Origin: an uncultured Gemmatimonadales bacterium
Lineage (GTDB): Bacteria; Gemmatimonadota; Gemmatimonadetes; Longimicrobiales; RSA9
DNA length: 64,000 bases
Assembly (NCBI GenBank): GCA_963798845.1
Contig: CAWCUS010000002.1
Coordinates: 480,001 to 544,000 of the forward strand
Direction of reading: 5' to 3'
Made by a program: the position numbers and the translations under genes. The number at the start of each line of letters is the position of its first letter. Positions within the stretch are counted from its first letter, which is position 1. The notes beneath the pieces were generated by a model that did not search any database, was not told where the DNA came from, and saw only the letters and a list, made by a program, of their open reading frames with translations. Below, piece after piece: positions 50,628 through 63,711 of this stretch.

Positions 50628-50703
50628 GGGCGGCAACCGGCGACTTCGTATGTCGGCCCATCCCGGCATGGCCATGCCCGGGCCTCCGACTCAGAGTTGC
50701 CCC

Positions 50704-51783
50704 ATGACGGACGCCGTGCGGGTCACGGACGCGGCAACGCGGATCGAAGTCCGGTTCCCCTACGACGCGGAGCTGGTCGGCCACATCCGCTCGATACCGG
50801 GCCGGCGCTGGGACCCGGGCCGATCGGCGTGGCTGCTCCCGCGCACCGAGGACGCCCTCAACGCGCTGCTCCGGGCGCCCGACGCGAGCTTCCGCGTCGA
50901 CCGCGGTCTCATGCACCTGGTCCGCGTCCCGTTCCGCCGGGGCAGCGGAACCGATCCGGCGGCGGCGCTCCTCCAGCGCCTCTCGGAAGAGCTCCGGCTC
51001 CAGGGATACAGTCCGCGCACGCGGAAGAACTACGTCGGCCACGTCCGTCGGTTCTTCGGAGCTTTCCCGAAGGCCGCGACCGAGCTGTCGACGGAGCACG
51101 TCCGCGCTCACCTGCTCCGCCTCCAGGCCGACGACCGCTCCGTCTCCTACCAGCACCAGGCGATCAGCGCCATCCAGTTCGCGGCCCGGCTCGTCGATCG
51201 GCCGCTCGCGCTGGAGCCGATCCGCCGCCCGAAGCGGGAGCGCCAGCTCCCCGCCGTTCTCTCACGCGAGGAAGTGCGCCGCATCCTCAATGCCCCCGCC
51301 AACCCGACCCACCGGCTGGCCCTGATGCTCGCGTACTCCGCCGGACTCCGCGTCGGCGAGGTCGTACGCCTCAGCGCCGGCGACGTGGATTCCGGGCGAG
51401 GGCTGATCCGGGTCCGCGCCGGGAAGGGAAGGAAGGACCGCTATACGCTGCTGGCCGATGCCGCGGCCGCCGCCCTCGACCCCGTCCTCGCCCGCCTCGA
51501 CGCCGACGCCTGGATCTTCCCCGGTGCCCGCCCCGGCCGCCACCTGACGACACGCTCCGTGCAGAAGACCTTCGAGCGCGCCCTGGTCCGGTCCGGCGTA
51601 CGCAAGCACGCCACCGTGCACACGCTCCGCCACAGCTTCGCCACCCACCTCCTCGAGGCCGGCGTCAACCTCCGCTACATCCAGGAGCTCCTCGGCCACA
51701 CGAGCCCCCGCACCACCCAGATATACACCCACGTCAGCCGCGGCGATCTTACCCGGATCGTGAACCCGCTCGACGCAGCGTGA
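50704..51783 (+). CDS. Integron-type tyrosine recombinase with an N-terminal HARP-like domain, SAM-like domain and no IntI I2 insertion
   Basis: Catalytic R (GLRVGE), K (GKGRKDR), HTLRH, LGH, Y (IYTH); YSPRTRKNY SAM-like region; N-terminal FPYDAELVGHIRSIPGRRWDPGRSAW. Confidence 0.9.
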   Translation: MTDAVRVTDAATRIEVRFPYDAELVGHIRSIPGRRWDPGRSAWLLPRTEDALNALLRAPDASFRVDRGLMHLVRVPFRRGSGTDPAAALLQRLSEELRLQGYSPRTRKNYVGHVRRFFGAFPKAATELSTEHVRAHLLRLQADDRSVSYQHQAISAIQFAARLVDRPLALEPIRRPKRERQLPAVLSREEVRRILNAPANPTHRLALMLAYSAGLRVGEVVRLSAGDVDSGRGLIRVRAGKGRKDRYTLLADAAAAALDPVLARLDADAWIFPGARPGRHLTTRSVQKTFERALVRSGVRKHATVHTLRHSFATHLLEAGVNLRYIQELLGHTSPRTTQIYTHVSRGDLTRIVNPLDAA

Positions 51784-51983
51784 GGGGGAAGCGGCCGTCG
51801 GCCGCTCGAATCAGCCCCGTGCAAACGGCCGTGCTGAGCCCCTGTACAAGGTCATTGCTTCTGAACAAGAATGGCCCCAAATAGAGATGATTCGGGTCAG
51901 GCGGCCGGGGTGGGTGGCTCCGACAATCTGATAAGGACCTTTCCCGAACGACCGGCGCAAACATCCGGCCCGCCGACATCCTA

Positions 51984-52016
51984 CCGAACACGAGTTCGGT
52001 AACGCAGTAGTTAAGT
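51984..52016 (+). other. attI-like primary recombination site, crossover G/TT at 52010/52011
   Basis: CCGAAC-ACGA-GTTCGG then TAAC-GCAGTA-GTTA; GTTAAGTGC (52010) is the exact complement of GCACTTAAC (52186) ending cassette 1; no attC body upstream. Confidence 0.75.
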
Positions 52017-52187
52017 GCCATGCGCGCAACGGATCATTCGGGCGGGTACTGTGCTCGCCAGCGGCTGGTTCAGGAAAGCTCCAGGCCTCGAGCTGAGCTA
52101 AGATTGCCCCGCCCCGCCCGGGGAGGGCTAGGGGGGAGAGGCCCAGCAGCTAGAACGAAAGGGAAGACAGGGCAAGGCGCGCACAGC
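52011..52187 (+). other. Cassette 1 body: gene-less or small-ORF structured cassette (divergent family member)
   Basis: No RBS-led ORF; shares ends and internal motifs with cassettes 2, 4 and 10. Confidence 0.7.
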
Positions 52188-52337
52188 ACTTAACACACGG
52201 TTGCCGCCTCCGCTCGCTTCGCGAGCTCCGGAGTACCCGGCGGATTAGCGAACGGAGTTCGGGAAGTATCCGGACGGGGGAGGGGAAACGAGCAATCGAG
52301 GGGGCGGACGCCGGGTCGCCCACCTGAAACGTTAGCC
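52188..52337 (+). repeat. attC-like site 1
   Basis: ACTTAAC...GGTTGCCG...CGCCCACC...GTTAGCC, 150 bp; L stem has two mismatches. Confidence 0.85.
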
Positions 52338-52502
52338 GCCATGCGCGCGGAGGAGGCTCTTGGGTGTTGCGCCCGAAATCGGCCGAGCAGGAAAGGGAAG
52401 AGCTTCGTTCTGAGGATTGGCTGCCCCACCCCACCCAAGAGGCCCAGATTCGTGAAGGGCTTGGAGCTTTGGTTTGCGAGGGCAGGGCAGGGCGCACACA
52501 GC
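52332..52502 (+). other. Cassette 2 body: gene-less structured cassette, copy A
   Basis: Nearly identical to 53401-53571 and 60537-60707. Confidence 0.85.
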
Positions 52503-52654
52503 GGCTAACAACACGGTTGCCGCCTGCGCTCGCTGCGCTCGCTCCGGAGAACCCGGCGGATTAGCGAACTCGTGTTCGGAAAAGCGGCGGTGGATTGAAG
52601 CTACTGTGCACTCGGATCGCTGGACCGCCGGGTCGGCAACCGGAAACGTTATGC
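52503..52654 (+). repeat. attC-like site 2
   Basis: GGCTAAC...CGGTTGCCG/CGGCAACCG...GTTATGC, 152 bp. Confidence 0.9.
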
Positions 52655-52670
52655 GGCATCCGCTTCAGAG

Positions 52671-52940
52671 CTACAGGCGCTTCAAGAGTTGGTCATAGTC
52701 GGCGTGTGAGCCGATCCAGAACCAGATCCAGTCATCGTCGGCGCGGCGGGCCAAGGCTCTGTAGTGGAGCGATATGCGGGCTGAGAAGATCGGCTCGGTC
52801 GCGTGAACCTGCTTGAACTGCAGGCTCGGATGAGCCGGATTGGCGGAGAAGAGGTCGAAGGCCTCGCGAGCCCGCTCCTGGACGTCGGTAGGAAGTGAGG
52901 AATAGGCCTTCCGAAAAGATGAAGTGGTGCGGGAGGTCAA
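52671..52940 (-). CDS. RelE/ParE-superfamily toxin (cassette 3, antisense to the array)
   Basis: FRKAYSSLP...HPSLQFKQV...WFWIGSHADYD; start overlaps the antitoxin stop. Confidence 0.82.
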   Translation of the reverse strand: MTSRTTSSFRKAYSSLPTDVQERAREAFDLFSANPAHPSLQFKQVHATEPIFSARISLHYRALARRADDDWIWFWIGSHADYDQLLKRL

Positions 52941-53155
52941 AGCTTGGACGGGTCGAGGTTTTCCGTCTCACCTCGTGCGTCTTCGGCGAGGGCTTCGTTC
53001 GCGAGCTTCGCCAAGTCGTCCTGGGAGTTTTCAAAGGTCCGATCCCAGTTTCGATCGGACTCGAGCTCCTCCAGGAGTAGAGCGGCGATGGCGTCCTGCT
53101 GCTCGCTGGGGAGCTTGGACGCTTCGTCGAAAGCCTTCTTGAGTAGTTCGGTCAT
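52937..53155 (-). CDS. Putative antitoxin (cassette 3)
   Basis: Acidic 72-aa MTELLKKAFDEASKLPSEQQDAIA...; AAGGAGG RBS. Confidence 0.8.
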   Translation of the reverse strand: MTELLKKAFDEASKLPSEQQDAIAALLLEELESDRNWDRTFENSQDDLAKLANEALAEDARGETENLDPSKL

Positions 53156-53173
53156 GAGATCCTCCTTGGCCGG

Positions 53174-53203
53174 ATGATACCCAGGAGGGGATCGGCAGTT
53201 CAA
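53174..53203 (-). promoter_or_regulatory. Cassette-internal promoter of the TA operon
   Basis: TTGAAC-N18-TATCAT on the minus strand just upstream of the antitoxin RBS. Confidence 0.6.
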
Positions 53204-53250
53204 GAGCGAGAGGCGGTTTGCGGAGCGAAAGGCCTGGATTTGCGGACACC

Positions 53251-53406
53251 GCATAACAAACGGTTGGCGCCTGCGGTCGCTTCGCTCCCTCCGGAGAACC
53301 CCGCGATCAAGATCGTGGCGCCGGTCGAAGGGGCGGGGCAGTTTCGAAGGATGCTGCGCCGGGAAAAGCAGTGGCAGGCGGGGTCGCCAACCTGGAAACG
53401 TTAGCC
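53251..53406 (+). repeat. attC-like site 3
   Basis: GCATAAC...GGTTGGCG/CGCCAACC...GTTAGCC, 156 bp. Confidence 0.9.
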
Positions 53407-53571
53407 GCCATGCGCGCGGAGGAGGCTCTTGGGTGTTGCGCCCGAAATCGGCGGAGCAGGAAAGGGAAGAGCTTCGTTCTGAGGATTGGCTGCCCCACCC
53501 CACCCAAGAGGCCCAGATTTGTGAAGGGCTTGGAGCTTTGGTTTGCGAGGGCAGGGCAGGGCGCACACAGC
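53401..53571 (+). other. Cassette 4 body: gene-less structured cassette, copy B
   Basis: Two substitutions relative to copy A. Confidence 0.85.
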
Positions 53572-53679
53572 GGCTAACAACACGGTTGCCGCCTGCGCTC
53601 GCTGCGCTCGCTCCGGAGAACCCGGCGGATTAGCGAACTCGTGTTCGGAAAAGCGGCGGTGGATGAAGAAACGTTAAGC
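53572..53679 (+). repeat. attC-like site 4, internally deleted (right arm missing)
   Basis: Matches site 2 up to GGTGGAT, then GAAG joins directly to AAACGTTAAGC; 108 bp versus 152 bp. Confidence 0.85.
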
Positions 53680-53712
53680 GCAATTGACGCAGCGTACTCG
53701 AAGGGAGGCTGG

Positions 53713-54714
53713 ATGAGGCTGTCCAGCAGAACGATCAGTGATCTTGCCGAACTGATCTGCGGTGCTAGCGGTGGCGGTGGCGGCTATGACTGGTCACACT
53801 TCCCATACAGATCCAGCTCCCGTCTCACCGAATTCTTCAGGAACTGCGACCTTGATTACGTTCATCAAGGTGAGACTAGGAAGTGGTGGGTCGAAGAGGT
53901 CCTTACGGAGCTCAACAAAGCACCTGCCTCCACTCCCCACCTCCCACCGGGCGGCATCATTCGAGTGCTCCAGGAGCTGCTGGACCCGCTGGACTATAAA
54001 CGGGCCGAACTAGATCAGTCCGCGGCGCTGAAGGACCTAAACGCGGTCGTCTCTCGGGATGGTTTGGAGGTTTACCTCGACGGGTCGCGTCGCGCGCATG
54101 TGAGGAATCGCGACACTGAGGCGACCTCTGCCAACCTTAAAATCCAGTCCCGCCCTCTGACCAAGGAAGAGTTGGAGAAGAGACGCAAGGCTGAGGAATT
54201 TCTCGAGAAAGCTTCGGAAGACGAGATAATCGAGGAGCTGCTTGTACCGTTGTTTCGACAGTTGAATTTTCTGCGAGTGAGTCCGACAGGGCACCGGGAC
54301 AGATCGCTGGAGTTCGGCAAGGACTTGTGGATGAAGTTCCAGCTGCCGACCGGTCACTTCATCTACTTCGGCGCTCAAGTCAAGCGAGACAAGATCGACG
54401 CCGCTGGAAGGGATGTCACCAAGAATATCAGCGGTATCATCGCCCAAGCAGAGATGATGCTAGACCACCCGGTTTTCGACCCAGAGAGCAACCGCAAGCA
54501 TCTCCTTGACCACGTCTTCATCATTTCAGGCGGGGAAATAACGAAGCAAGCGAGATCACTGATCGTGGAGAACCTGGACCGAGAGGCGCGCCGACATCTG
54601 ATCTTCATGGATCGAGACGAACTTCTTGATCTGGTGGTCCTTACGGGCACACGGATACCTGAAGAGGAAGCTGAGGCTGCGAGTTCGCCGATCGATGATG
54701 ACCTGCCATTCTAG
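53713..54714 (+). CDS. Cassette 5: PD-(D/E)xK (Mrr/restriction endonuclease-like) protein with an AbiJ-like N-terminal region
   Basis: GGGAGG RBS; YRSSSRLTEFF N-terminal motif; EFGKDL...AQVKR nuclease-like motif. Confidence 0.7.
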   Translation: MRLSSRTISDLAELICGASGGGGGYDWSHFPYRSSSRLTEFFRNCDLDYVHQGETRKWWVEEVLTELNKAPASTPHLPPGGIIRVLQELLDPLDYKRAELDQSAALKDLNAVVSRDGLEVYLDGSRRAHVRNRDTEATSANLKIQSRPLTKEELEKRRKAEEFLEKASEDEIIEELLVPLFRQLNFLRVSPTGHRDRSLEFGKDLWMKFQLPTGHFIYFGAQVKRDKIDAAGRDVTKNISGIIAQAEMMLDHPVFDPESNRKHLLDHVFIISGGEITKQARSLIVENLDREARRHLIFMDRDELLDLVVLTGTRIPEEEAEAASSPIDDDLPF

Positions 54715-54744
54715 GCGGGTGGACAGTGAAGGGGCGTCAACTGC

Positions 54745-54893
54745 GCTTAACAAACGGTTGGCGCCTGCGCGGCCTGCGGCCGCTCCGGAGAACCCGCCGC
54801 GGCCGTGTTGAAGCTGGTGAGAGGATCGCAGTTTCGAAGGTGATGCGCACTGGAGGTTGTGGCGCGGCGGGTCGCCAACCTGGAACGTTATCT
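54745..54893 (+). repeat. attC-like site 5
   Basis: GCTTAAC...GGTTGGCG/CGCCAACC...GTTATCT, 149 bp. Confidence 0.9.
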
Positions 54894-55286
54894 GCAATTG
54901 GCTCAACGACTGAGGGAGGGTGAATGGACCTCAAGCGCGTCCTCGAAGAAATCTCTGATCATCTCGCGCCGAAGCTGGACACCTATGAGCACGCCCTCTA
55001 CACGTACCTGTTCCGCAACACGGTGCTGCGAGGAGAACCAGAGGCTGTAATCGGCTTCAAATCTGCGCGCCACGAGTTGCCGAGGGGAATCGGGACCGCA
55101 GGAACGGCAATGGCCGAGGGGACATGCTATGAGAAGCTCAGGTCCTTAGAAGCCAAGGGCTGCATCAAGGTGTTGGGTACAGAACGGCAAGGAACGCGGG
55201 TGCGGCTGTTCTTGCCGAGTGATATTGTGGGTTCTCTGAACTATGTCCGGTTAATTCTCGAAATTCTGGCCGGCCGGGAGCGTGAG

Positions 55287-56062
55287 CTAGGCGGCTTCAG
55301 AGTCCGGGGTCTCCTCCTGTTTGAGATGGCGGGTGCGGTAGGAGCGGCCGCGGAGCACGAAGTGAGTGCCGCGCTCCAGGAGCCGGTCGAGGATCGCCTC
55401 CGCAAGATCGGCATCATGCAGCACCTGACCGAGGGCGGCCAGAGGCTTATTGGTGGTGACGATCATGGGTCGGTGCCTGAGGTAGCGGTCGTTGACCACC
55501 CGGTAGAGCACGTTGGCGGCATCGGCGGCATAGCTCTGATAGCCGAGCTCGTCGATGATCAGGACGTGGGGGTGGACGTAGGGTTCGAGCGCCTCGTCCA
55601 GCCGTCCCTCAGTGGCCGCGTTGGAGAGGGCGCCGATCAGCTCATCCGCGGTGGTGAATCGGGCCTCGAATCCGTTCTGGATCGCTCGGTAGCCGATGGC
55701 TACCCCCATGTGGGTCTTCCCTCGACCCGGCGGGCCGCTGAAATGGCGCACCGGCCTTCGCTCACCAGCTCCGGCCCCAGCAGCGTGCCGAGCATCTGGA
55801 GGCGGACGCTGGTCTGGAAGGTGAAGTCGAATTCCTCAATGGTGCGGAGGAAGGGGAAGCGGGCCTTGCGGACGGACCGGGTGATCCGGGTCTGCGCCCG
55901 GTGAGCGATCTCCTCGGCCACCAGCAGCTCGAGGAAGGTGCGGTAGCTCATGCCCTCCTCCTCGGCCCGGATCGCCAGGTCCGGATACAGGCGCCGGATG
56001 GTCGGCATGTGGAGGCGCTTGAGCATGGCGTCGAGGTCGTCCAGCGGCACCGGAGTCTTCAT
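55287..56062 (-). CDS. istB: IS21 helper ATPase, frameshifted at about 55742
   Basis: ARFPFLRTIEEFDF then GPPGRGKT, IIDELGY, AILDRLL in another frame; one T missing from a short T run. Confidence 0.88.
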
Positions 56063-57468
56063 GAGGCCACCTCCTTCGCCGCCAGCCCGATCACGTACTC
56101 AGCTCCGATCAGCCGCTGGAAGAGCGCGCGCTGGAGCAGGCGGAGGAAGCGCTCCTGGCCGAGCTCCTCGAGCAGGGCGAAGAGGCGCTCCACGTCTCCT
56201 TTCCATGTGTGGGGTCGGGCGTGGATGAGCTCCGTCAGGTAGCCCTCTCCTACGGGCCCCAGCTCCAGGATTCGCTCCCGCATGAAGTAGAGGCGCTTCC
56301 GTGCACCGGCCACGGCCGCCAGCTGCTCGGCCCGCTGGCCGGGCAGGTAGCTGGTGTTTCCGATCTTTGGAAACCTGGGGTGGGTGGCCTCGAAGCGGGC
56401 GCCGGTGGTGACGATCCGGAGCCGGTCCGGGTACAGGTGGAGCGTGGCCGGGATCCCGCACGCACCCGCCGGCATGGCGTAGCGCACGCCCTGGAAGTCC
56501 ACGAGCGCGGTGGGTCCCACGTGGACAGCGTAACGCAGACCGTACTCGGCCGGCGGGATGGCCAGCGGCTTCATCCGCGCCTGCTCTGCGGTCAGCCGGA
56601 TCTTGGGGATCTCCTTCGTGGCCCGGGATGGCCGCTCCTCATTCCCCCCGATCAGCCAGTCCAGGAGCTGACGGGGGAGGTCCTGGTCGAGCTCAGCGAA
56701 GCGGCGGGCCCGGAAGAAGCTCCGCTTCACCCACCCCACCAGATTCTCCACCGATCCCTTCTGCTGCGGGCTCCTGGGCGTGCACAGCCCGATCGTGAAG
56801 CCATAGTCGATGGCGACCTGGGCCAGCGTGGAATTCCAGATCGGCCGGCCCCGGTCGTCGCGGCCCACCACCACCGTCTTCGGATTGTCGAAGACCACCC
56901 GGAGCGGCACCCCGCCCGAATGCTCGAAGCCGGCCAGGAGTGCCCGGACGAGTGACTCGATCCGCTCGTCCGGCACGATCACCACCCACACCCACCGCGA
57001 GTACTTCAGACGGTACGCCGCGAAGTGAACTCGCTTCTTCCGTCCATCCAGCAGCCGGACGTCGGCCTGACCGAAATCGAACTGGGCGAACTCCCCGGCC
57101 ACCCCCTCGAACCGCACCATCAGCTCCGCCGGCAGCTTCCCCTTCTCCAACCGGAAGACCCGGTAGAAGGTGCTCTCCGCCAGCTCCGCCCCCTCCTCCC
57201 GAAGCTGACGCAGGTATTCCAGGGGTGGAGCCTCGGGATCCTCCGCGATCAGATCCACCAGCCGGCGCTTCACCGCCTCCGGCACCGCGGGACGCCCGAT
57301 CCCCCGGCGCTTCCTCTCCGCCGCATCGTCTCCCTCCGCCACCGGCGGCTCCTTCGAGATCCGACGGACAGACCGCTCCGAGATCCCCAGCTGCCTCGCG
57401 ATTTCCGTCTGCTTCTGCCCCGCCTCCAGCAGCGCATGCACCGCATGTCGATCGATCACCCTGAGCAT
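56059..57468 (-). CDS. istA: IS21 transposase
   Basis: N-terminal HTH, RFEGVAGEFAQFDFG, FDNPKTVV, KGSVEN. Confidence 0.93.
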   Translation of the reverse strand: MLRVIDRHAVHALLEAGQKQTEIARQLGISERSVRRISKEPPVAEGDDAAERKRRGIGRPAVPEAVKRRLVDLIAEDPEAPPLEYLRQLREEGAELAESTFYRVFRLEKGKLPAELMVRFEGVAGEFAQFDFGQADVRLLDGRKKRVHFAAYRLKYSRWVWVVIVPDERIESLVRALLAGFEHSGGVPLRVVFDNPKTVVVGRDDRGRPIWNSTLAQVAIDYGFTIGLCTPRSPQQKGSVENLVGWVKRSFFRARRFAELDQDLPRQLLDWLIGGNEERPSRATKEIPKIRLTAEQARMKPLAIPPAEYGLRYAVHVGPTALVDFQGVRYAMPAGACGIPATLHLYPDRLRIVTTGARFEATHPRFPKIGNTSYLPGQRAEQLAAVAGARKRLYFMRERILELGPVGEGYLTELIHARPHTWKGDVERLFALLEELGQERFLRLLQRALFQRLIGAEYVIGLAAKEVAS

Positions 57469-58021
57469 CCTCCCCCGCCTCCATCTGACAGGAACTCCAT
57501 CCTGCCCGGGACGGGACTACAGTATTCTACGGAGGCTCCTCAGCCGGCCAGATTTTCGAGAGATCAGCGGTCAGAATTCGGGGAACTCACAGATATCGAC
57601 GGCGTCGTCCCAGTTGTTGGGGAAGAGCAGCGGCCCCGCCTAGAAGATCTGGACTTTTTCAATAATGCCTCAAATCGCGAGGCTATCCTGCGGCGAGAGG
57701 ATGGCCGCTGCTTCTATTGCCTTCGGCAGGTTGATGGATCGAATCATGTGATCGAACACCTTACGGCACGGCGGGAGGGAGGCAACGGATACACCAACGT
57801 GGTCGCCGCCTGTCGAGAGTGTAACAATAGGAAGGGGGCAGGCAGTCCTGAGGACCATCTTCGGCGGCTCTATAGGAGTGGTCTCCTGAACGCCGACGAA
57901 ATGGAAGGTCGTTTGGCCGCCCTTGATCTGGTCAGGACGGGCCAGCTAAAGCCGACGCTCGCGGATTTTGAGGATGCGGAGGTTGCCTAGGCGAGTGGAC
58001 CTCGGACGGGGAGCCAACTGC

Positions 58022-58172
58022 AGATGACAAACGGTTGGCGCCTGCGCGGCCTGCGGCCGCTCCGGAGAACCCGCCGCGACCGTGCCGAAGCTGGTGAGGT
58101 GTTCGCAGTTTCGAAGGTGATCGCGCGCCTGAGGTTGTGGCGCGGCGGGTCGCCAACCTGGAAACGTTAGAC
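58022..58172 (+). repeat. attC-like site 6 (R'' AAC changed to GAC)
   Basis: AGATGAC...GGTTGGCG/CGCCAACC...GTTAGAC, 151 bp. Confidence 0.88.
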
Positions 58173-58200
58173 GGCATTCCTTTGGAGCGGGAAAGGTCTG

Positions 58201-59297
58201 ATGGCGGATTCTGACCAGCTCGATCTCGAAGCTGCTATTGAGGAAGCCGAAGAAGCTGACCTCGAGAAAGAGCGTGATGCAGTTCTTGCCGCGGTGTCAG
58301 CCAGCCGGCTGGATACGCTGCAAAAGAGGGTTGCATGGGTTCTGAACCATTACCCGGATGCCAGAGATTCCGATGTTGCTCTGTACATACGTTATTGGCG
58401 TGAGTTTGAAGGCGAGCATGTCGAAGGGGAGTACGTCAAGCTCAAGAACATTACCGTCTGACTCGGCCGGCGTCGCTTACCCGAGCCCGAGCCAAGCTTC
58501 AGAACGAGTACAGGTTATTCCTGGCGAGTGACGAAGTCAGAAAACACCGCGGAACACTGTCGGAGGAGGAAAAGGAAAAGGCGGTTAGTCAAAGGCCCAC
58601 GTTCCCAATGTACACGGCCTATGCCGATGAGAGCGGAAAGACCGACAACTTCTTAGTGGTTGGAGCCGTTTGGTTTCTGAACGGTCCGGAGATCATCGAG
58701 GTGACCCAAGAGGTGGAGAGGCTTGCCAAGGCGCGCGGCATTTCCGCCGAACTCCACTTCAGAGAGATCGACTACTCTACGTTGGACTTCTACAAGGAAG
58801 TGGCTGCGTTGGTACTGGCTCGTTCAGCAACCATTTCATTCACTTCGATCAGCGTCGAGCGAAGAGGCCACAAGCGAGTGGACGATGCCATTGCTAACCT
58901 GTATGAGCATCTGCTTCTCCGAGGGGTGGAGTACCACGACTCCACGAACAGAGCGCCACTGCCACGGAGCCTTAGCGTCTTCAAGGATCGCGAAGAAGTA
59001 GGCCGAGACAAGCTACTGATGGCGAATCTCGAAGAGTCGCTCAGACAGGCGAGTGAGGCGCGGCTGGAGGGAAAGCTGTACGTCGACAGGCTGGCGGCCG
59101 TTGACTCCGAGGAGAACATCCCGGTTCAGCTTGGCGATCTGTACACCAGCAGCGTCGCCAGAGTCTTGAACGCCACGGGCAAGCGCAACTCAGCACGAGA
59201 TGATTTCGCGGATTTCTTCTTAGGAGAGCTGGGGATCCCCAATGGTCCAGCCGCGGAAGAGCGGGTGGGGGACATGGTGGCTCACGTGGCCTTGTGA
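58201..59297 (+). CDS. Cassette 7: DUF3800-like (RNase H-fold) protein with an N-terminal extension, frameshift at about 58450
   Basis: YADESGK, ELHF, VQLGDLY motifs; 58201-58461 joins the 58608 frame via YRLTRPASLTRARAKLQNEY. Confidence 0.75.
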
Positions 59298-59318
59298 TAT
59301 CCCTCATGGAGGAACGCC

Positions 59319-59469
59319 GTCTAACAAACGGTTGGCGCCTGCGCGGCCTGCGGCCGCTCCGGAGAACCCGCCGCGGCGGCTTGGAAGCTGGTGAGGTTCG
59401 TGTGATTTCGAAGGTGATCATGCGCTGGAGATAGTGGCGCGGCGGGTCGCCAACCTGGAAACGTTAGGC
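59319..59469 (+). repeat. attC-like site 7
   Basis: GTCTAAC...GGTTGGCG/CGCCAACC...GTTAGGC, 151 bp. Confidence 0.9.
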
Positions 59470-59496
59470 GCCACGCTCTACGAGAGGAGGCGGATC

Positions 59497-59951
59497 ATGT
59501 ACTGTGATGTCGTTCGAGCGCTGGTTGTTGCGGGCGTACTGATTGGCAGCACCGCCTGTTTAAGTACTAGCGCCGTCGATTCGCCCGTCGAAGTTGGCGT
59601 TGACATCGATAAACATCAGTCAGCGTCGGAGACACGGTGGTGTTCACCACAGCCGTCCACAACCCCACGGATCGGCGAATTCAAGTCGGAGTGGAATGCG
59701 GGCCCAGCCTAGACGTTCAGCTTCGGAGGCCCGACGGTTCAAGCCTTTCGGTGTTGAGCCGCATTGTCGGAGGTGGTGCGTTCACGTGCGAATTGGCGGA
59801 ACACCATTTCGCCGATCCCGGAGAAACGGAACGGCTGACGCTTCGGTGGAAGGCTGAAGCTCCGAGAGGGACGTACTTGGCCGTTGCTCAAACCAGGTGC
59901 GGGGAGGACCAGTGTCCCACGAGCGACCCCGTGACTTTTGTCGTGAAGTAG
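59497..59951 (+). CDS. Cassette 8: putative lipoprotein with an Ig-like domain, frameshift at about 59612
   Basis: AGGAGG RBS, lipobox-like STAC; adding one A to the AAA run gives DKTSVSVGDTVVFT... Confidence 0.65.
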
Positions 59952-59972
59952 GTGATATGGCGCTCGCGCAGC

Positions 59973-60128
59973 GCCTAACAAACGGCTGGCGCCTCCGCGG
60001 ACTGCGGCCGCTCCGGAGAAACCCGGCGCGACCGTTTCTGAGCAGTCGAAGGCTCGTGTAGTTTCGAAGGCTGTGGAGCTGGTGAGTTCATGGTGAGCGC
60101 CGGGTTCGCCAGCCTGGAAACGTTAAGC
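59973..60128 (+). repeat. attC-like site 8
   Basis: GCCTAAC...GGCTGGCG/CGCCAGCC...GTTAAGC, 156 bp. Confidence 0.9.
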
Positions 60129-60158
60129 GCCAGAGCCCGCAATCTGGAGGAGGCAATA

Positions 60159-60398
60159 TTGACTCGTCGCGAACTGTCGCAGACCGGATGCCGAAACGTC
60201 TTGGCGCTGATGGGGATTGCCTCGTTGGGCTTGTTAACGATAGGCCTGACAGGATTCGATTCTTTCGACACCGGGTGGATCAGGTAGGGGCTGCGCGCGG
60301 TCTGGACAGGGGGGATGGCCGTGGCCGTTTGGACAATCGGTCGTGCGGCCCGGAAGGCGATCGAACTGCTTGAGGACGTGGCCAGCTCCGGCGCTTAA
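60159..60398 (+). CDS. Cassette 9: small membrane protein, apparently frameshifted (in-frame stop at 60287)
   Basis: GGAGGAGG RBS before TTG; one TM segment; a second frame MAVAVWTIGRAARKAIELLEDVASSGA ends at the TAA inside R''. Confidence 0.45.
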
Positions 60399-60542
60399 CA
60401 CACGGCCGCCGCCTTCGCTCGCTGCGCGAGCTCCGGAGAACCCGGCGTCAAGCGCACCGCCCTCGAGGAGAGCATTGAACCACTGGTAGACAGGCGGTAT
60501 GGAGGGATGTGCCGCCGGGTCGGCGGCCTAGAAACGTTAGCC
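60393..60542 (+). repeat. attC-like site 9
   Basis: GCTTAAC...GGCCGCCG/CGGCGGCC...GTTAGCC, 150 bp. Confidence 0.9.
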
Positions 60543-60707
60543 GCCATGCGCGCGGAGGAGGCTCTTGGGTGTTGCGCCCGAAATCGGCCGAGCAGAAAAG
60601 GGAAGAGCTTCGTTCTGAGGATTGGCTGCCCCACCCCACCCAAGAGGCCCAGATTCGTGAAGGGCTTGGAGCTTTGGTTTGCGAGGGCAGGGCAGGGCGC
60701 ACACAGC
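60537..60707 (+). other. Cassette 10 body: gene-less structured cassette, copy C
   Basis: One substitution relative to copy A. Confidence 0.85.
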
Positions 60708-60859
60708 GGCTAACAACACGGTTGCCGCCTGCGCTCGCTGCGCTCGCTCCGGAGAACCCGGCGGATTAGCGAACTCGTGTTCGGAAAAGCGGCGGTGGAT
60801 TGAAGCTACTGTGCACTCGGATCGCTGGACCGCCGGGTCGGCAACCGGAAACGTTAACC
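60708..60859 (+). repeat. attC-like site 10
   Basis: Same body as site 2, ends GTTAACC, 152 bp. Confidence 0.9.
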
Positions 60860-60925
60860 GCCATGTTCCACTCGGCGTTTCTGTAGCAGATTAGGAGCAA
60901 GGGACTTCAGGGAAGGAGCTTGCGG

Positions 60926-61150
60926 ATGTCGAGTGTACCAATCGAGGAACTGCTCAAGCTGTCGGTCGCTGAGCGGATTCAGTTGGTGGAGGACCTGTGG
61001 GACAGCATCGCTACGGACGCGGACGCCTATCCATTAACTGAGGCCCAGAAGGCGGAACTGGACCGTAGGCTGGCAGAACATGAAGCGGACCCGGATTCTG
61101 CTATTCCCTGGGAGGAAGTCCGGGAGCGGTTGTACAAGAAGTACGGGTGA
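60926..61150 (+). CDS. Cassette 11: addiction-module antitoxin (TIGR02574-like)
   Basis: LSVAERIQLVEDLWDSI...LTEAQKAELDRRL...IPWEEV. Confidence 0.9.
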   Translation: MSSVPIEELLKLSVAERIQLVEDLWDSIATDADAYPLTEAQKAELDRRLAEHEADPDSAIPWEEVRERLYKKYG

Positions 61151-61443
61151 GCCGCCGCTTCGTTGTTCGCCCTGCGGCCGACGCCGAACTCGAGGAAGCC
61201 GCAGCGTGGTATTCGGAGCGTTCCTTGGGCTTGGGAGCGGAATTCGTCCGCGTCATCGATGCGGCTTTCTCAGCGATCCAGCGGAATCCTCTCCGATTTC
61301 CCATTCTGTATCGGGATGTCCGGAGGGCCGTTGTTCGGCGATTCCCATATGCCATTCTCTTCAGAGCGAGCGCGGAAGAGATCGTGGTACTCTCCGTTTT
61401 CCATTCCCGCCGCGATCCGAAGCGTTGGCAGGCCCGGAGGTGA
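61147..61443 (+). CDS. Cassette 11: ParE/RelE-family toxin
   Basis: PAADAELEEAAAWY...GLGAEF...RRFPYAI...VFHSRRDP; GTGA overlap with the antitoxin. Confidence 0.9.
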   Translation: MSRRFVVRPAADAELEEAAAWYSERSLGLGAEFVRVIDAAFSAIQRNPLRFPILYRDVRRAVVRRFPYAILFRASAEEIVVLSVFHSRRDPKRWQARR

Positions 61444-61535
61444 CGTCCGCCAGGCTGCGGGCAGAATGTCAATGCCGGACGAAAACAGCACAGATGTGGC
61501 GCTCGAAAATGCCACACTCGAGGGGGGACGAGCCC

Positions 61536-62375
61536 TCAGGTTGTCGTAGCCTCCAGACGGGCACGTCGCCGTGGTTTGGGTGAAGGCTCTTCCTCCAGGT
61601 CGGGGGTGTGGAGCGCCTGCCAGACCTCGGAGTGCCGACGAAGGCGATAGCTGTTGCCCCGGATGTTGACAATGTGGCAATGGTGAAGCAGCCGGTCGAT
61701 CAGCGCCGCGGCCATGACTTCATCGCCGAAGATGGCGCCCCATTCTTCAAAGCTCTTGTTCGAGGTCAGGACCGTCGACGCCCGCTCATAGCGCCGGTTC
61801 ACGAGCTGGAAGAAGAGCATGGCTCCGGTGTGGCTGACCGGGAGGTAGCCGATCTCGTCCACCACCAGGAGCGAGGGGTGGCTCAGGACGCTCATCCGTT
61901 GCTTGAGCATGCCCGCCGCTTTGGCTTCCTCGAGAGACGAGATCAGATCTGCCAGGGTCCCGTAGTAGACGCGACGCCCGTGCTCGGCGGCGGCGATGGC
62001 GAGGCTGATGGCCAGGTGCGTTTTCCCGACTCCAGGAGGGCCGAGGAAGATCACGTTCTCCTTTCGCTCAATGAAGCCGAGTTCGTGGAGGCTCTCAATC
62101 TGCTCTCGCTTGATCGAGGGCTGGAATGAGAAATCGAAATCGGTGAGCAGCTTCACCGCCGGAAGCCGGCTCGAGCGCATGGCGGCCTGCAGACGTCGGT
62201 TGTTGCGGAGTTGGATCTGAGCTCCGAGGAGCTGCTCGATAGCCTCGCTTGGCGTGACCTCGCCACCATCGACGGCGGAAAGAATGGAGTCCAGGGCCTC
62301 CAGGGCCCCCGGCATCTTCAGGTCGGCCAGCATGGACCGGATGTGATCACGACGGGACACCTTGGCCCCTCTCAT
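61536..62375 (-). CDS. istB: IS21 helper ATPase
   Basis: DFDFSFQPSI, GPPGVGKTHLA, VVDEIGY, LIDRLLHH, GNSYR. Confidence 0.93.
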   Translation of the reverse strand: MRGAKVSRRDHIRSMLADLKMPGALEALDSILSAVDGGEVTPSEAIEQLLGAQIQLRNNRRLQAAMRSSRLPAVKLLTDFDFSFQPSIKREQIESLHELGFIERKENVIFLGPPGVGKTHLAISLAIAAAEHGRRVYYGTLADLISSLEEAKAAGMLKQRMSVLSHPSLLVVDEIGYLPVSHTGAMLFFQLVNRRYERASTVLTSNKSFEEWGAIFGDEVMAAALIDRLLHHCHIVNIRGNSYRLRRHSEVWQALHTPDLEEEPSPKPRRRARLEATTT

Positions 62376-63406
62376 TGGCCACCTGCCGCGATGCGGGCGT
62401 AGGTGGAGAGCGAGCGGCGCTGCACCGCAATCGCGGGGAGGAGCGACCGATCTCTCACCTCCTGCTTGCGCTCCATGGGGATGACCAGCGAGCGGTAGGA
62501 CCGCTCGGCCAGCGGAAGGAGGTGCTCCCGCTCCCTCTCGAAGCGCGCCACCGGCTGTTCCTTTGTGGTGCCGTGGATCCGGACGTTCGCCGTTTTCTCC
62601 AGCCACTGCTCGAGGCGAGCGTCCAGATCCTCGTCCCCGACAAACTCGCGGCCGTAGACGAAATTGCGGCGCACGTAGCTCACCGGCCGCTCGACCTTGC
62701 CTTTCGTCCGGGCTCGATAGGCTCTACAGGCGCGGATGTCGAAGCCCCAGTGAGCAGCGAAGCGCAGAAACTCCTCGTTCTTCAGGAGCTCACCTCCTTC
62801 CAGCCGCCGATCGTCCAGGATCACGTTCTTGAGCTGGTCGAAGAGGAGGTGCTGCGGTACTCCACCGAAGAAGCGGAAGGCCGCTTCCAGCCCCTCGTAC
62901 AGCGCCCCCGTGGTCTTCCGCGGGAAGTAGCGCACCCAGAGGAGTCTGGAGAAGCCGAGCACGACCAGAAGCGCATACCGCTTGCCCCACGGAAATCTGA
63001 AGTCCGCGAAGTCCACCTGAGCCTGCCGGCCCGGCGGAGTCTCGAAGCGGATCACCGGCTCCTCCGGCAATCGAGGGCGGACCTGCCTCACGTACACCTT
63101 CACCTGCGTGTAGCCCCCGTCGTAGCCGGCGGCCTTCACCTCCTCGAAGAGCCGCACGGCCGAGAGTTCCGGATACTCCTTCAGCCGCTGTCCGATGATC
63201 GCCTTGTACGGCTCGAGCTTCCACGGCACCGCAGGCCGCGGCCCGTACCGCACCGGGTCCTGATCCAGATCCCGGTCCAACTGGCCCCTCCGGATCCACC
63301 GATAGATCGTGGTCCGATCGACGCCGAGCATCTCGGCAATGGCCGCCTTCGGCAGCCCCTGCTCGAGGTAGTGTCGCAACAGCACACGCTGCTCCCTTCC
63401 ATGCAT
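62372..63406 (-). CDS. istA: IS21 transposase
   Basis: HTH, RFETPPGRQAQVDF, LFDQLK, TKGKVERP. Confidence 0.93.
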   Translation of the reverse strand: MHGREQRVLLRHYLEQGLPKAAIAEMLGVDRTTIYRWIRRGQLDRDLDQDPVRYGPRPAVPWKLEPYKAIIGQRLKEYPELSAVRLFEEVKAAGYDGGYTQVKVYVRQVRPRLPEEPVIRFETPPGRQAQVDFADFRFPWGKRYALLVVLGFSRLLWVRYFPRKTTGALYEGLEAAFRFFGGVPQHLLFDQLKNVILDDRRLEGGELLKNEEFLRFAAHWGFDIRACRAYRARTKGKVERPVSYVRRNFVYGREFVGDEDLDARLEQWLEKTANVRIHGTTKEQPVARFEREREHLLPLAERSYRSLVIPMERKQEVRDRSLLPAIAVQRRSLSTYARIAAGGQ

Positions 63407-63560
63407 GGCGCCTCCACGGTGGGCGTGAAGACGCCAAGGTGGGATCGGAGCCGCACCTCCTGCGAGAGCTTCAGCGCGGCTCAGGGACGATCAGCGAGTG
63501 TCGCATTTTCGCCCGCCACATTCTGTGGAATTTTCGGCCGCCGCTAACACAGAACACGGC

Positions 63561-63711
63561 GGTTAACAAACGGTTGGCGCCTGCGCGGCCTGCGGCCGCT
63601 CCGGAGAACCCGCCGCGACCGTGTTGAAGCTGGTGAGGCTGCCGCTGTTTCGAAGGTGATCGCGTGCTAGAGGTATCGGCGCGGCGGGTCGCCAACCTGG
63701 AGACGTTAGCC
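63561..63711 (+). repeat. attC-like site 11
   Basis: GGTTAAC...GGTTGGCG/CGCCAACC...GTTAGCC, 151 bp. Confidence 0.9.

Follow-up and report, generated by a model that had tools for sequence, protein, structure and literature searches.

The question raised by this locus is how a tyrosine recombinase devoid of the I2 region of integron integrases comes to head a long array of gene cassettes bounded by attC-like sites, and what in those sites it could recognize. The DNA analyzed is a window of 64,000 nt (the whole stretch, to which positions refer unless another contig or locus is named) from an uncultured Gemmatimonadales bacterium (GTDB lineage Gemmatimonadota; Gemmatimonadetes; Longimicrobiales; RSA9), assembly GCA_963798845.1, contig CAWCUS010000002.1, positions 480,001 to 544,000 of the forward strand. 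The host genome is labeled G000; below, G numbers designate genomes and L numbers designate fetched loci. On the + strand, the window presents an integrase gene, an attI-like site and then a co-oriented cassette array, which counts at least 17 cassettes over approximately 20 kb and extends beyond the window end; a genome-wide pattern search followed it for about 9 kb further, to contig position 552.6 kb. From the sequence comparisons presented here, this is probably an integron-type cassette system with its own I2-less integrase.

In the structure of VchIntIA, the canonical extrahelical bases of the attC site are T12'' and G20''. More generally, an attC site is described in an excerpt of PMC11641012 as R and L boxes, a central spacer, two to three extrahelical bases on the R''/L'' arm and a terminal structure, and the part of PMC7790495 consulted states that I2 recognizes the extrahelical bases and lets a Xer-like enzyme read folded single strands. 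We observed 11 attC-like sites of approximately 150 nt in the window, all in one orientation, 10 of them intact and one truncated. The original prediction had placed such sites between 52188 and 63711, and a covariance model, R1, built from the 10 intact sites (reporting cut-off E<=1e-5), located all 11 at these positions:

52188..52337, + strand: site 1, matched by R1 and folds; two mismatches in stem 1
52504..52654, + strand: site 2, matched by R1 and folds; weak side hairpin
53251..53406, + strand: site 3, matched by R1 and folds; weaker side hairpin
53573..53679, + strand: site 4, truncated, matched by R1 with 59 bits
54745..54893, + strand: site 5, matched by R1 and folds
58022..58172, + strand: site 6, matched by R1 and folds
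59319..59469, + strand: site 7, matched by R1 and folds
59973..60128, + strand: site 8, matched by R1 and folds
60393..60542, + strand: site 9, matched by R1 and folds
60709..60859, + strand: site 10, matched by R1 and folds; weak side hairpin
63561..63711, + strand: site 11, matched by R1 and folds

The aligned sites begin on the 5' side with ..YTAAC-A(A/C)AC and end on the 3' side with GAAAC-GTTA.., and they possess the inverse cores (here TAAC/GTTA) that integron sites carry as R'' RYYYAAC and R' GTTRRRY around an imperfect palindrome. From the ends inward follow the R box, an asymmetric unpaired spacer, an unbulged stem 1 of 8-9 bp that is the counterpart of the L box, a 5'-arm insert with a hairpin, and stem 2, which abuts stem 1 directly on the 3' arm and so creates a three-way junction. 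RNAalifold, applied to the 10 intact sites after plain MAFFT alignment, returned 23 consensus pairs, 9 of them with double compensatory changes, arranged as an 8-pair stem 1, a side hairpin in the left-arm insert and a stem 2 adjoining stem 1. This is the layout that had been proposed (stem 1, a 28-nt left-arm insert hairpin and an abutting stem 2), and its details were reproduced as well, with two stem-1 mismatches in site 1 and a weaker side hairpin in sites 2, 3 and 10. Minimum free energy (MFE) folds with DNA parameters gave the three-way junction on both strands in most window sites. In site 4, a deletion of approximately 45 nt removed the right arm (stem 2' and stem 1') and retained the GAAACGTTA core; this deletion fuses two cassettes and represents a natural "dead" site.

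Beyond the window, R1 matched 88 sites in 10 genomes: 69 in nine other genomes of the same class and 19 in the host genome, of which 11 are in the window, 6 lie past it in the same array and 2 are on contig 5. E values of the window sites ranged from 1e-36 to 1e-46, and R1 had no match elsewhere in the window (~50 kb). A degenerate 29-nt pattern had 17 matches in the 4.26-Mb genome compared to 1 for the reversed control. An Rfam scan of the window at gathering thresholds returned no family, and a tRNA scan of the window returned no tRNA. Across the 88 sites, 93.7% of the 1983 consensus pair cells were paired, compared to 36-52% with partners slid by 1-3 columns, and both-sided changes were present in 22 of the 23 consensus pairs. 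The covariation score was 0.487 versus 0.129 +/- 0.008 in shuffles, with none of 500 shuffles reaching 0.487. Compensatory changes had been claimed for all three helices and are recovered in the covariation of the 88-site alignment; stem 1, for instance, occurs as GGTTGGCG, GGCTTCCG, TGTTTCCG and GGGTGGTG, each with a matching partner. The absence of any single extrahelical base also held, stem 1 having exactly 8+8 residues in 83/88 sites; in place of the two to three single extrahelical bases of integron sites, the 88 sites carry the insert. The anatomy of the sites and its covariation are among the best-supported results of this analysis.

Site length across genomes varies from 92 to 178 nt. 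The insert measures 27-29 nt in 60/88 sites (range 15-59); core and stem 1 are separated by a spacer of 4-5 nt on the 5' arm in 79/88 and of 6-8 nt on the 3' arm in 85/88. As in integrons, the sites have an unpaired central spacer and a variable terminal structure, the terminal loop being either short, 7-14 nt in 11 sites, or long, 65-79 nt in 74 sites. The terminal loop is also constrained in length and carries conserved lineage-specific motifs (alignment A2, columns 148-336), such as GCTGGTGAGG...GTTTCGAAGGTGAT in the host genome and G270, and TTTTCGAA, present in G084 as well. This conserved length and these motifs suggest a further function or a further helix.

Several observations weigh against a folded three-way junction. 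The 88-site covariation alignment was fitted to the R1 model and thereby favors the structure; from the independent RNAalifold result and the slid controls, we argue that the covariation is not an alignment artefact. When each site was folded by its own MFE, stem 1 recovered 81-84% of its consensus pairs, stem 2 61-64% and the side hairpin 40-46%, and at least 60% of all three helices was recovered in just 24/88 sites on the top strand and 31/88 on the bottom strand. Since single-site MFE recovery is modest, the side hairpin rests mainly on covariation, and two of its central positions are unpaired in 29 and 23 of the 88 sites. Wobbles do not distinguish the strands, with 24 G.T versus 36 A.C, each driven by one lineage. 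Finally, recombination, folding and binding are predictions from the sequence.

The modest recovery of the side hairpin would also suit an alternative in which the sites are used as duplexes, in a Xer-like two-step exchange, and the helices serve an RNA structure, a terminator or stabilizer, or dyad symmetry. According to the available portion of PMC7790495, the usual substrate of Xer-type recombinases without I2 is a duplex site, and covariation can separate neither DNA from RNA nor one strand from the other. However, the inverse cores frame the helices exactly at the cassette boundaries, and the R box, asymmetric spacer, L-box-like stem and longer 5' arm all have their parallels in the geometry of the canonical attC sites that these genomes contain. 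Short sites of 92-102 nt retain all three helices. A top-strand RNA should moreover favor G.U over A.C, whereas the wobble counts run in the opposite direction, and a top-strand RNA structure is made less likely by the missing G.U excess, as far as these alignments go. We consider duplex or RNA use improbable and retain the folded single strand as the proposed substrate.

The array is headed by the following gene:

50704..51783, + strand: tyrosine recombinase gene P0001, with PF13495 and PF00589 and without an I2 region

An earlier in-frame ATG lies at 50650. Pfam identified a SAM-like core-binding domain (PF13495) and the catalytic domain (PF00589, E 2e-42); the open reading frame (ORF) is intact and the catalytic residues R234, K259/K262, H324, R327, H350 and Y359 are invariant in 34 homologues. 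The best NCBIfam family was the integron integrase family TIGR02249, with 204 bits, below the cut-off of 265, and the match came in two pieces (query 107-282 on model 1-179, then model ~235-315), which skip model ~180-235, as they do in all eight array-linked homologues. Compared to VchIntIA (PDB 2a3v), 27 residues of P0001 lie opposite 69 chain residues. The spacing from GKGxKxR to LRHSFA is 65-70 residues in this clade, compared to 72-78 in XerC/D-type enzymes and 108-110 in canonical IntI. By these three measures, P0001 lacks the I2 region that characterizes integron integrases, which upholds the I2-less integrase of the original prediction.

An AlphaFold model of the whole protein (pLDDT 85.4) had 2a3v (IntI4) as its best structure, with E 6.6e-16, followed by archaeal XerA. 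We then placed P0001 in a quick maximum-likelihood tree of 94 recombinase cores, with SH-aLRT support only and a midpoint root. XerC/D-type enzymes were split with support of 100 from IntI, XerA-like enzymes (archaeal and CPR) and the P0001 clade; IntI was monophyletic (7 rows, support 98) and the P0001 clade was separate (32 rows, support 95). The integrase is accordingly placed by its sequence on the IntI/XerA branch of tyrosine recombinases. Since the quick tree separates the clade from a monophyletic IntI, P0001 appears to be a parallel lineage and no degenerate member of the sampled IntIs. P0001 was also considered as the housekeeping XerC/D of the host; this was rejected, a separate XerC/D-type gene (L004) grouping with XerC/D and P0001 on the IntI/XerA side.

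To what extent the integrase and the arrays travel together was assessed in 301 genomes of the class, with an integrase cut-off of E<=1e-60. A homologue was found in 29/301 genomes, with many genes at contig ends, as expected because of the adjoining repeats. Eleven loci with at least 2.8 kb of downstream sequence were fetched (L116-L126), and R1 arrays were observed in 7 of them (L116-L121 and L123), downstream of and co-oriented with the integrase. Together with the window, the integrase-first, co-oriented arrangement was found in 8/8 R1-array loci, and this linkage also counts among the best-supported results. As for the other loci, L122 has a single R1 match, upstream and on the opposite strand, L126 has no R1 site in the downstream sequence searched, and L124 and L125 have arrays of another branched repeat. 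R1 arrays contain 17 to more than 20 sites. The largest is that of L117 (G084 contig 1), with 22 R1 matches in the 18 kb fetched and more beyond, and with near-tandem cassettes that are often of only ~340 nt.

In a 151-genome sample of the class with stricter filters, R1 sites were present in 8 genomes, 6 of which carry the integrase at E<=1e-60, compared to the overall rate of 29/301. The linkage is weakened by the 2 R1-positive genomes without an integrase at this cut-off, both of them fragmented assemblies, and, at greater distance, by the lack of arrays beside most relatives with the N-terminal domain: R1, run as a crude scan on 67 of 80 distant metagenome loci (31-46% identity), had no match in any of the 67, and an exact 12-mer repeat scan of 52 of these loci, which misses sites conserved in structure alone, found possible arrays in only a few (L134 and L154). 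No downstream array was seen in L010 by a crude scan, and likewise none in L016. L154, a metagenome contig, encodes a distant relative (34% identity) with the N-terminal domain described below and has attC-like sites on both sides of the gene, each branched in its interior and with a 16-bp stem that contains one A.C mismatch; the gene itself may be part of an array.

The same genomes allowed a comparison with canonical integrons. In the host, contig 2:1-9000 (L003) is a second, canonical integron, with attC hairpins of 65-140 nt bearing single-base bulges; its intI gene, with the I2 region present, is in two frames (1322-1831 and 1827-2267). Intact canonical IntI are encoded in G207 and G252. 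The G252 gene (contig 1, ~1.31-1.32 Mb) is adjoined by 12 sites of 105-116 nt, each a simple hairpin with TAAC/GTTA cores; 2-3 single bases bulge from the 5' arm, among them an invariant G after 6 bp. The canonical integrase of these genomes matches TIGR02249 with 411 bits over model 1-314, I2 included, and R1 found no site in the regions beside the canonical intI of G252 or of the host. Two systems coexist, an I2 integrase with bulged hairpins and an I2-less integrase with an N-terminal domain, an unbulged stem and a side hairpin. They share the lineage, the TAAC/GTTA cores, the spacer asymmetry (short on the 5' arm, and 5-6 nt on the 3' arm in the canonical sites) and a co-oriented integrase; they differ in that the canonical one has I2, hairpins of 65-140 nt, 2-3 bulges and no side hairpin.

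In both systems, the extra material lies on the 5' arm (the strand co-oriented with the integrase) and the longer spacer on the 3' arm. The G252 bulges are ~9 and ~14-16 nt past AAC, and the R1 insert begins 13-14 nt past AAC; therefore, the hairpin sits about at the position of the distal bulge. The contrast between the two systems belongs with the firmest observations. Replacement of the extrahelical bases by the side hairpin fits this contrast, which is a correlation among related genomes, and we regard the hairpin as a plausible stand-in for them, if slightly short of an even call.

The TAAC/GTTA cores of the R box, being common to both site types, raise the alternative that a canonical IntI encoded elsewhere recombines the R1 sites, with the adjacent I2-less recombinase as an unrelated remnant or resolvase; the two-frame intI of the host at contig 2:1322-2267 and the intact genes of G207 and G252 would be the source of such an enzyme. 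In contrast, no canonical IntI above the cut-off was found in 4/8 array genomes (G084, G089, G162 and G192, 92-97% complete), and the I2-less gene is adjacent and co-oriented in 8/8 arrays with a conserved attI-like junction beside it. The canonical intI genes have bulged-hairpin arrays of their own and no R1 sites nearby, and stem 1 presents no extrahelical base to I2. We judge recombination by a canonical IntI to be decidedly improbable, and retain the adjacent I2-less enzyme as the probable integrase of the array.

Between this gene and the first cassette, we identified a candidate insertion site:

51982..52013, + strand: attI-like site, palindrome CCGAAC-ACGA-GTTCGG followed by AACGCAGTA-GTTA

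This attI-like sequence, TACCGAACACGAGTTCGGTAACGCAGTA-GTTA, is located ~200-230 nt beyond the integrase stop codon, and the first cassette begins at its GTTA (52010-52013). L116, the closest locus, has this 32-nt stretch in conserved form as far as GTTA, with divergence directly after it. The pairing of its palindrome is kept through both-sided changes, in a comparison with L116 that covers two close genomes only, and other genomes have at this position different sequences ending in AGTTA. These features are suggestive of an attI-like site beside the integrase.

Cassette mobility was examined with one unit of the array:

60853..63708, + strand: antitoxin/ParE cassette with its own site 11; antitoxin at 60920-61147 (PF09720) and ParE toxin at 61147-61440 (PF05016)

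This cassette occurs with its own site twice in the host genome, after site 10 and on contig 5, where the copy is uninterrupted and stands behind a different site and a different gene. The two copies have 3 mismatches in 614 nt. Their identity starts 6 nt before the upstream GTTA and ends exactly at the GTTA of their own site, which places the crossover to within the shared core. Units bounded at R' GTT, as in integrons, are found here in two contexts, and these GTTA boundaries are again among the best-supported results; a toxin-antitoxin cassette at two loci, bounded by GTTA, shows in its sequence the apparent mobility of cassettes. The contig 5 region (~360.2-361.1 kb; L002 8207-9121, minus strand) is a two-site cluster with no integrase nearby and resembles an integrase-less attC cluster. 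Contigs from three metagenome runs of one study present other cassette orders, with some joints inside GAAACGTTA, such as 53394 joined to 53668, or 54883 to the earlier position 53397; they offer weak support for mobility, as contigs can be chimeric at repeats.

Could the array be an immobile relic, its structure and its linkage to the integrase merely inherited, with no present recombination? One site is truncated, two IS21-family elements have landed in cassettes, and the data are contigs, not reads able to show excision circles. Against this, the integrase ORF is intact with its catalytic residues complete, the toxin-antitoxin copies at two loci differ at just 3/614 positions, and array content varies among related genomes while site structure is kept by compensatory change. 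A relic is in our estimation very unlikely, and the system that we retain is one with mobile cassettes.

The units between sites have the size of single genes, according to the ORF list and Pfam. They encode a ParE-like toxin, a 357-aa unknown protein, an HNH-endonuclease protein, a DUF3800 protein, two small unknown proteins and the antitoxin/ParE pair. The third cassette contains two reverse-oriented ORFs:

52671..53156, - strand: region of a reverse-oriented ParE-like toxin (gene at 52671-52940, PF24732), in cassette 3
within 52671..53156, - strand: small ORF upstream of the reverse ParE-like toxin, putative antitoxin (ORF list)

A 317-nt cassette (~170 nt plus its site) is present three times in the window (52331-52648, 53400-53673 and 60536-60853), and its middle copy, at 53400-53673, bears the truncated site. 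The unit at 52013-52331, the first after attI, is a diverged relative with the same GCCATGCGCGC start. It has no co-oriented ORF of at least 60 aa, and a small peptide, a promoter or an RNA are options for its content. Two IS21-family elements lie on the minus strand, at ~55240-57585 and 61467-63554. The former interrupts the HNH-endonuclease gene of a cassette, as read by eye, and its istB is spread over two frames; the latter is inserted between the ParE gene and site 11, with a 5-bp target duplication, CAGAA.

What could read a junction in the absence of I2? The integrase carries an additional domain upstream of its core, which had escaped the original prediction:

50704..50964, + strand: N-terminal domain of ~90 aa (residues ~19-105), HARP-like, absent from canonical IntI

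It has an invariant G..W......W motif, with conserved G51/R52/W54/W61, and is kept in thousands of homologues from several phyla (7997/8000 scored candidates at E<=1e-10), named carriers including Longimicrobiales, Gemmatimonadota, Dehalococcoidia, Latescibacteria and Clostridiales. Its AF2 pLDDT was 80.5 when modelled alone and 91-97 within the full-length model. Foldseek ranked first the HARP domain of SMARCAL1 (4o66, an entry that carries the title 'substrate recognition domain'), with E 0.058, probability 0.93 and 25% identity. VIA-align gave Z 7.2 for the T4 UvsW N-domain (rmsd 1.9 A over 60 residues), 6.0 and 5.7 for XPB N-domains and 4.2 for 4o66, on a scale where Z of 7-8 is common for models without a true match. 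The Pfam HARP family (PF07443) matched P0001 with 19.6 bits, below the gathering cut-off of 25, and was also sub-threshold in 7/16 relatives (E<=1, best 1.8e-5) and in two distant relatives, P0068 and P0082. Each of these lines is weak alone; combined, these model comparisons point to a HARP-like, structure-specific DNA-binding fold. The HARP domain of SMARCAL1 and the N-domains of T4 UvsW and archaeal XPB are the best predicted-fold matches, with modest scores, and unlike in those helicases the HARP-like domain is here fused to a tyrosine recombinase. The HARP, UvsW and XPB N-domains form one branched-DNA-binding family in fork-remodelling helicases.

The N-terminal domain is present in each of the 8 integrases that adjoin R1 arrays, with variant motifs in two, and is a candidate reader of the junction, at less than even odds. 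A relative weakens this proposal: the I2-less integrase of L124 (G255) lacks the domain and lies near three-way-junction sites, so the junction may be read by something other than this domain. The L125 integrase (G294) has a different N-terminus, and both belong to an I2-less sister subclade. Their arrays, which R1 does not match, have 8-15 sites with an unbulged 9-bp stem 1 and a junction with two larger hairpins, from the few examples folded; in L125, stem 1 has a conserved T.T mismatch. From these sequences, the three-way junction may characterize I2-less systems in general, with the HARP-like domain as an extra.

The system could also hold as described with another task for the domain, namely binding of arm-type or attI DNA or recruitment to replication forks, the junction being sensed by the core domains or through geometry alone. 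The N-terminal domain of lambda Int binds arm-type DNA, and HARP-type domains are fork and junction binders in helicases. The L124 relative without the domain near three-way-junction sites, and the conservation of the domain in many distant relatives in which no R1 sites were seen, would suit such a task. The opposing pattern is that all 8 R1-array integrases have the domain, while in canonical integrons the domain is missing from the integrase and the hairpin from the sites, a correlation that runs within related genomes only. We rate another task for the domain as rather unlikely, though a serious competitor to junction reading by the domain.

Single-strand folding in vivo, the strand used, the protein contacts and the role of the N-terminal domain are what we infer from this anatomy, and the proposed mechanism is worded accordingly. 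A single-stranded site would fold into R box, asymmetric spacer, stem 1, a junction with the side hairpin, and stem 2 with the terminal structure. Two integrase monomers would bind the R box and stem 1 of the folded strand. The junction and side hairpin, perhaps with the spacer asymmetry, would then mark strand and polarity, a role that canonical integrons give to single extrahelical bases docked on I2; the N-terminal domain would possibly read the junction. Cleavage and single-strand exchange would follow at the AAC/GTT core, the partner being attI or a second site. Taken as a whole, this would be a second independent solution to folded-strand capture, in which an IntI-sister lineage that never gained I2, or has no need of it, reads a three-way junction via a fused HARP-like domain; we offer it as a tentative proposal, less likely than not.

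The closest known systems are the sedentary chromosomal integrons (VchIntIA/VCR, 2a3v). They share with the locus a tyrosine recombinase that heads a long array of single-gene cassettes, with an attI site between them that here is a candidate, and sites with inverse cores, an unpaired spacer, an L-box-like stem, a terminal structure and a longer R''/L'' arm. GTTA-type cassette boundaries at a GTT core, toxin-antitoxin cassettes and repeated cassettes are also common to both, and the recombinase core of the new system is closest to IntI in sequence and fold. Unlike sedentary integrons, the new system has no I2 and has a HARP-like N-terminal domain; its sites have no single extrahelical bases and form a three-way junction by a 27-29-nt hairpin insert; and its integrase is co-oriented with the array. 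Xer recombinases (XerC/D, XerA) also lack I2, the motif spacing of XerA-like enzymes is equal to that of the new integrase, and XerA provides the next-best structures. However, Xer acts on one dif site per replicon, whereas the new integrase heads a 20-kb array. CTX phage, in the excerpt of PMC7790495, is a case of a Xer enzyme acting on a folded single strand; the forked hairpin of the phage mimics duplex dif, whereas the new sites carry a branch.

I2-less recombinases beside attC sites are held, in the section of PMC4889954 consulted, not to be integron integrases. A search of open full text (PMC, bioRxiv), with subscription journals outside its scope, yielded no account of arrays with an I2-less integrase, of attC sites that branch or of HARP domains fused to recombinases. 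Overall, the system is a real, new integron variant, integron-like but lacking two defining features, the I2 region and the extrahelical bases.

Integrons are defined and searched for by the I2 region and a hairpin-with-bulges attC model. Gene-capture systems of the present kind are probably broader than current search tools detect, and censuses would undercount them. The two systems coexisting in these genomes would be a natural pair for asking how strand and site selectivity works and how I2 arose, and the new structure-specific recombinase and its site would offer a pair for single-stranded DNA engineering. If the HARP-like domain does read the junction, its family of thousands of members in many phyla would constitute a large unrecognized class of structure-specific recombinases, invisible to integron finders.

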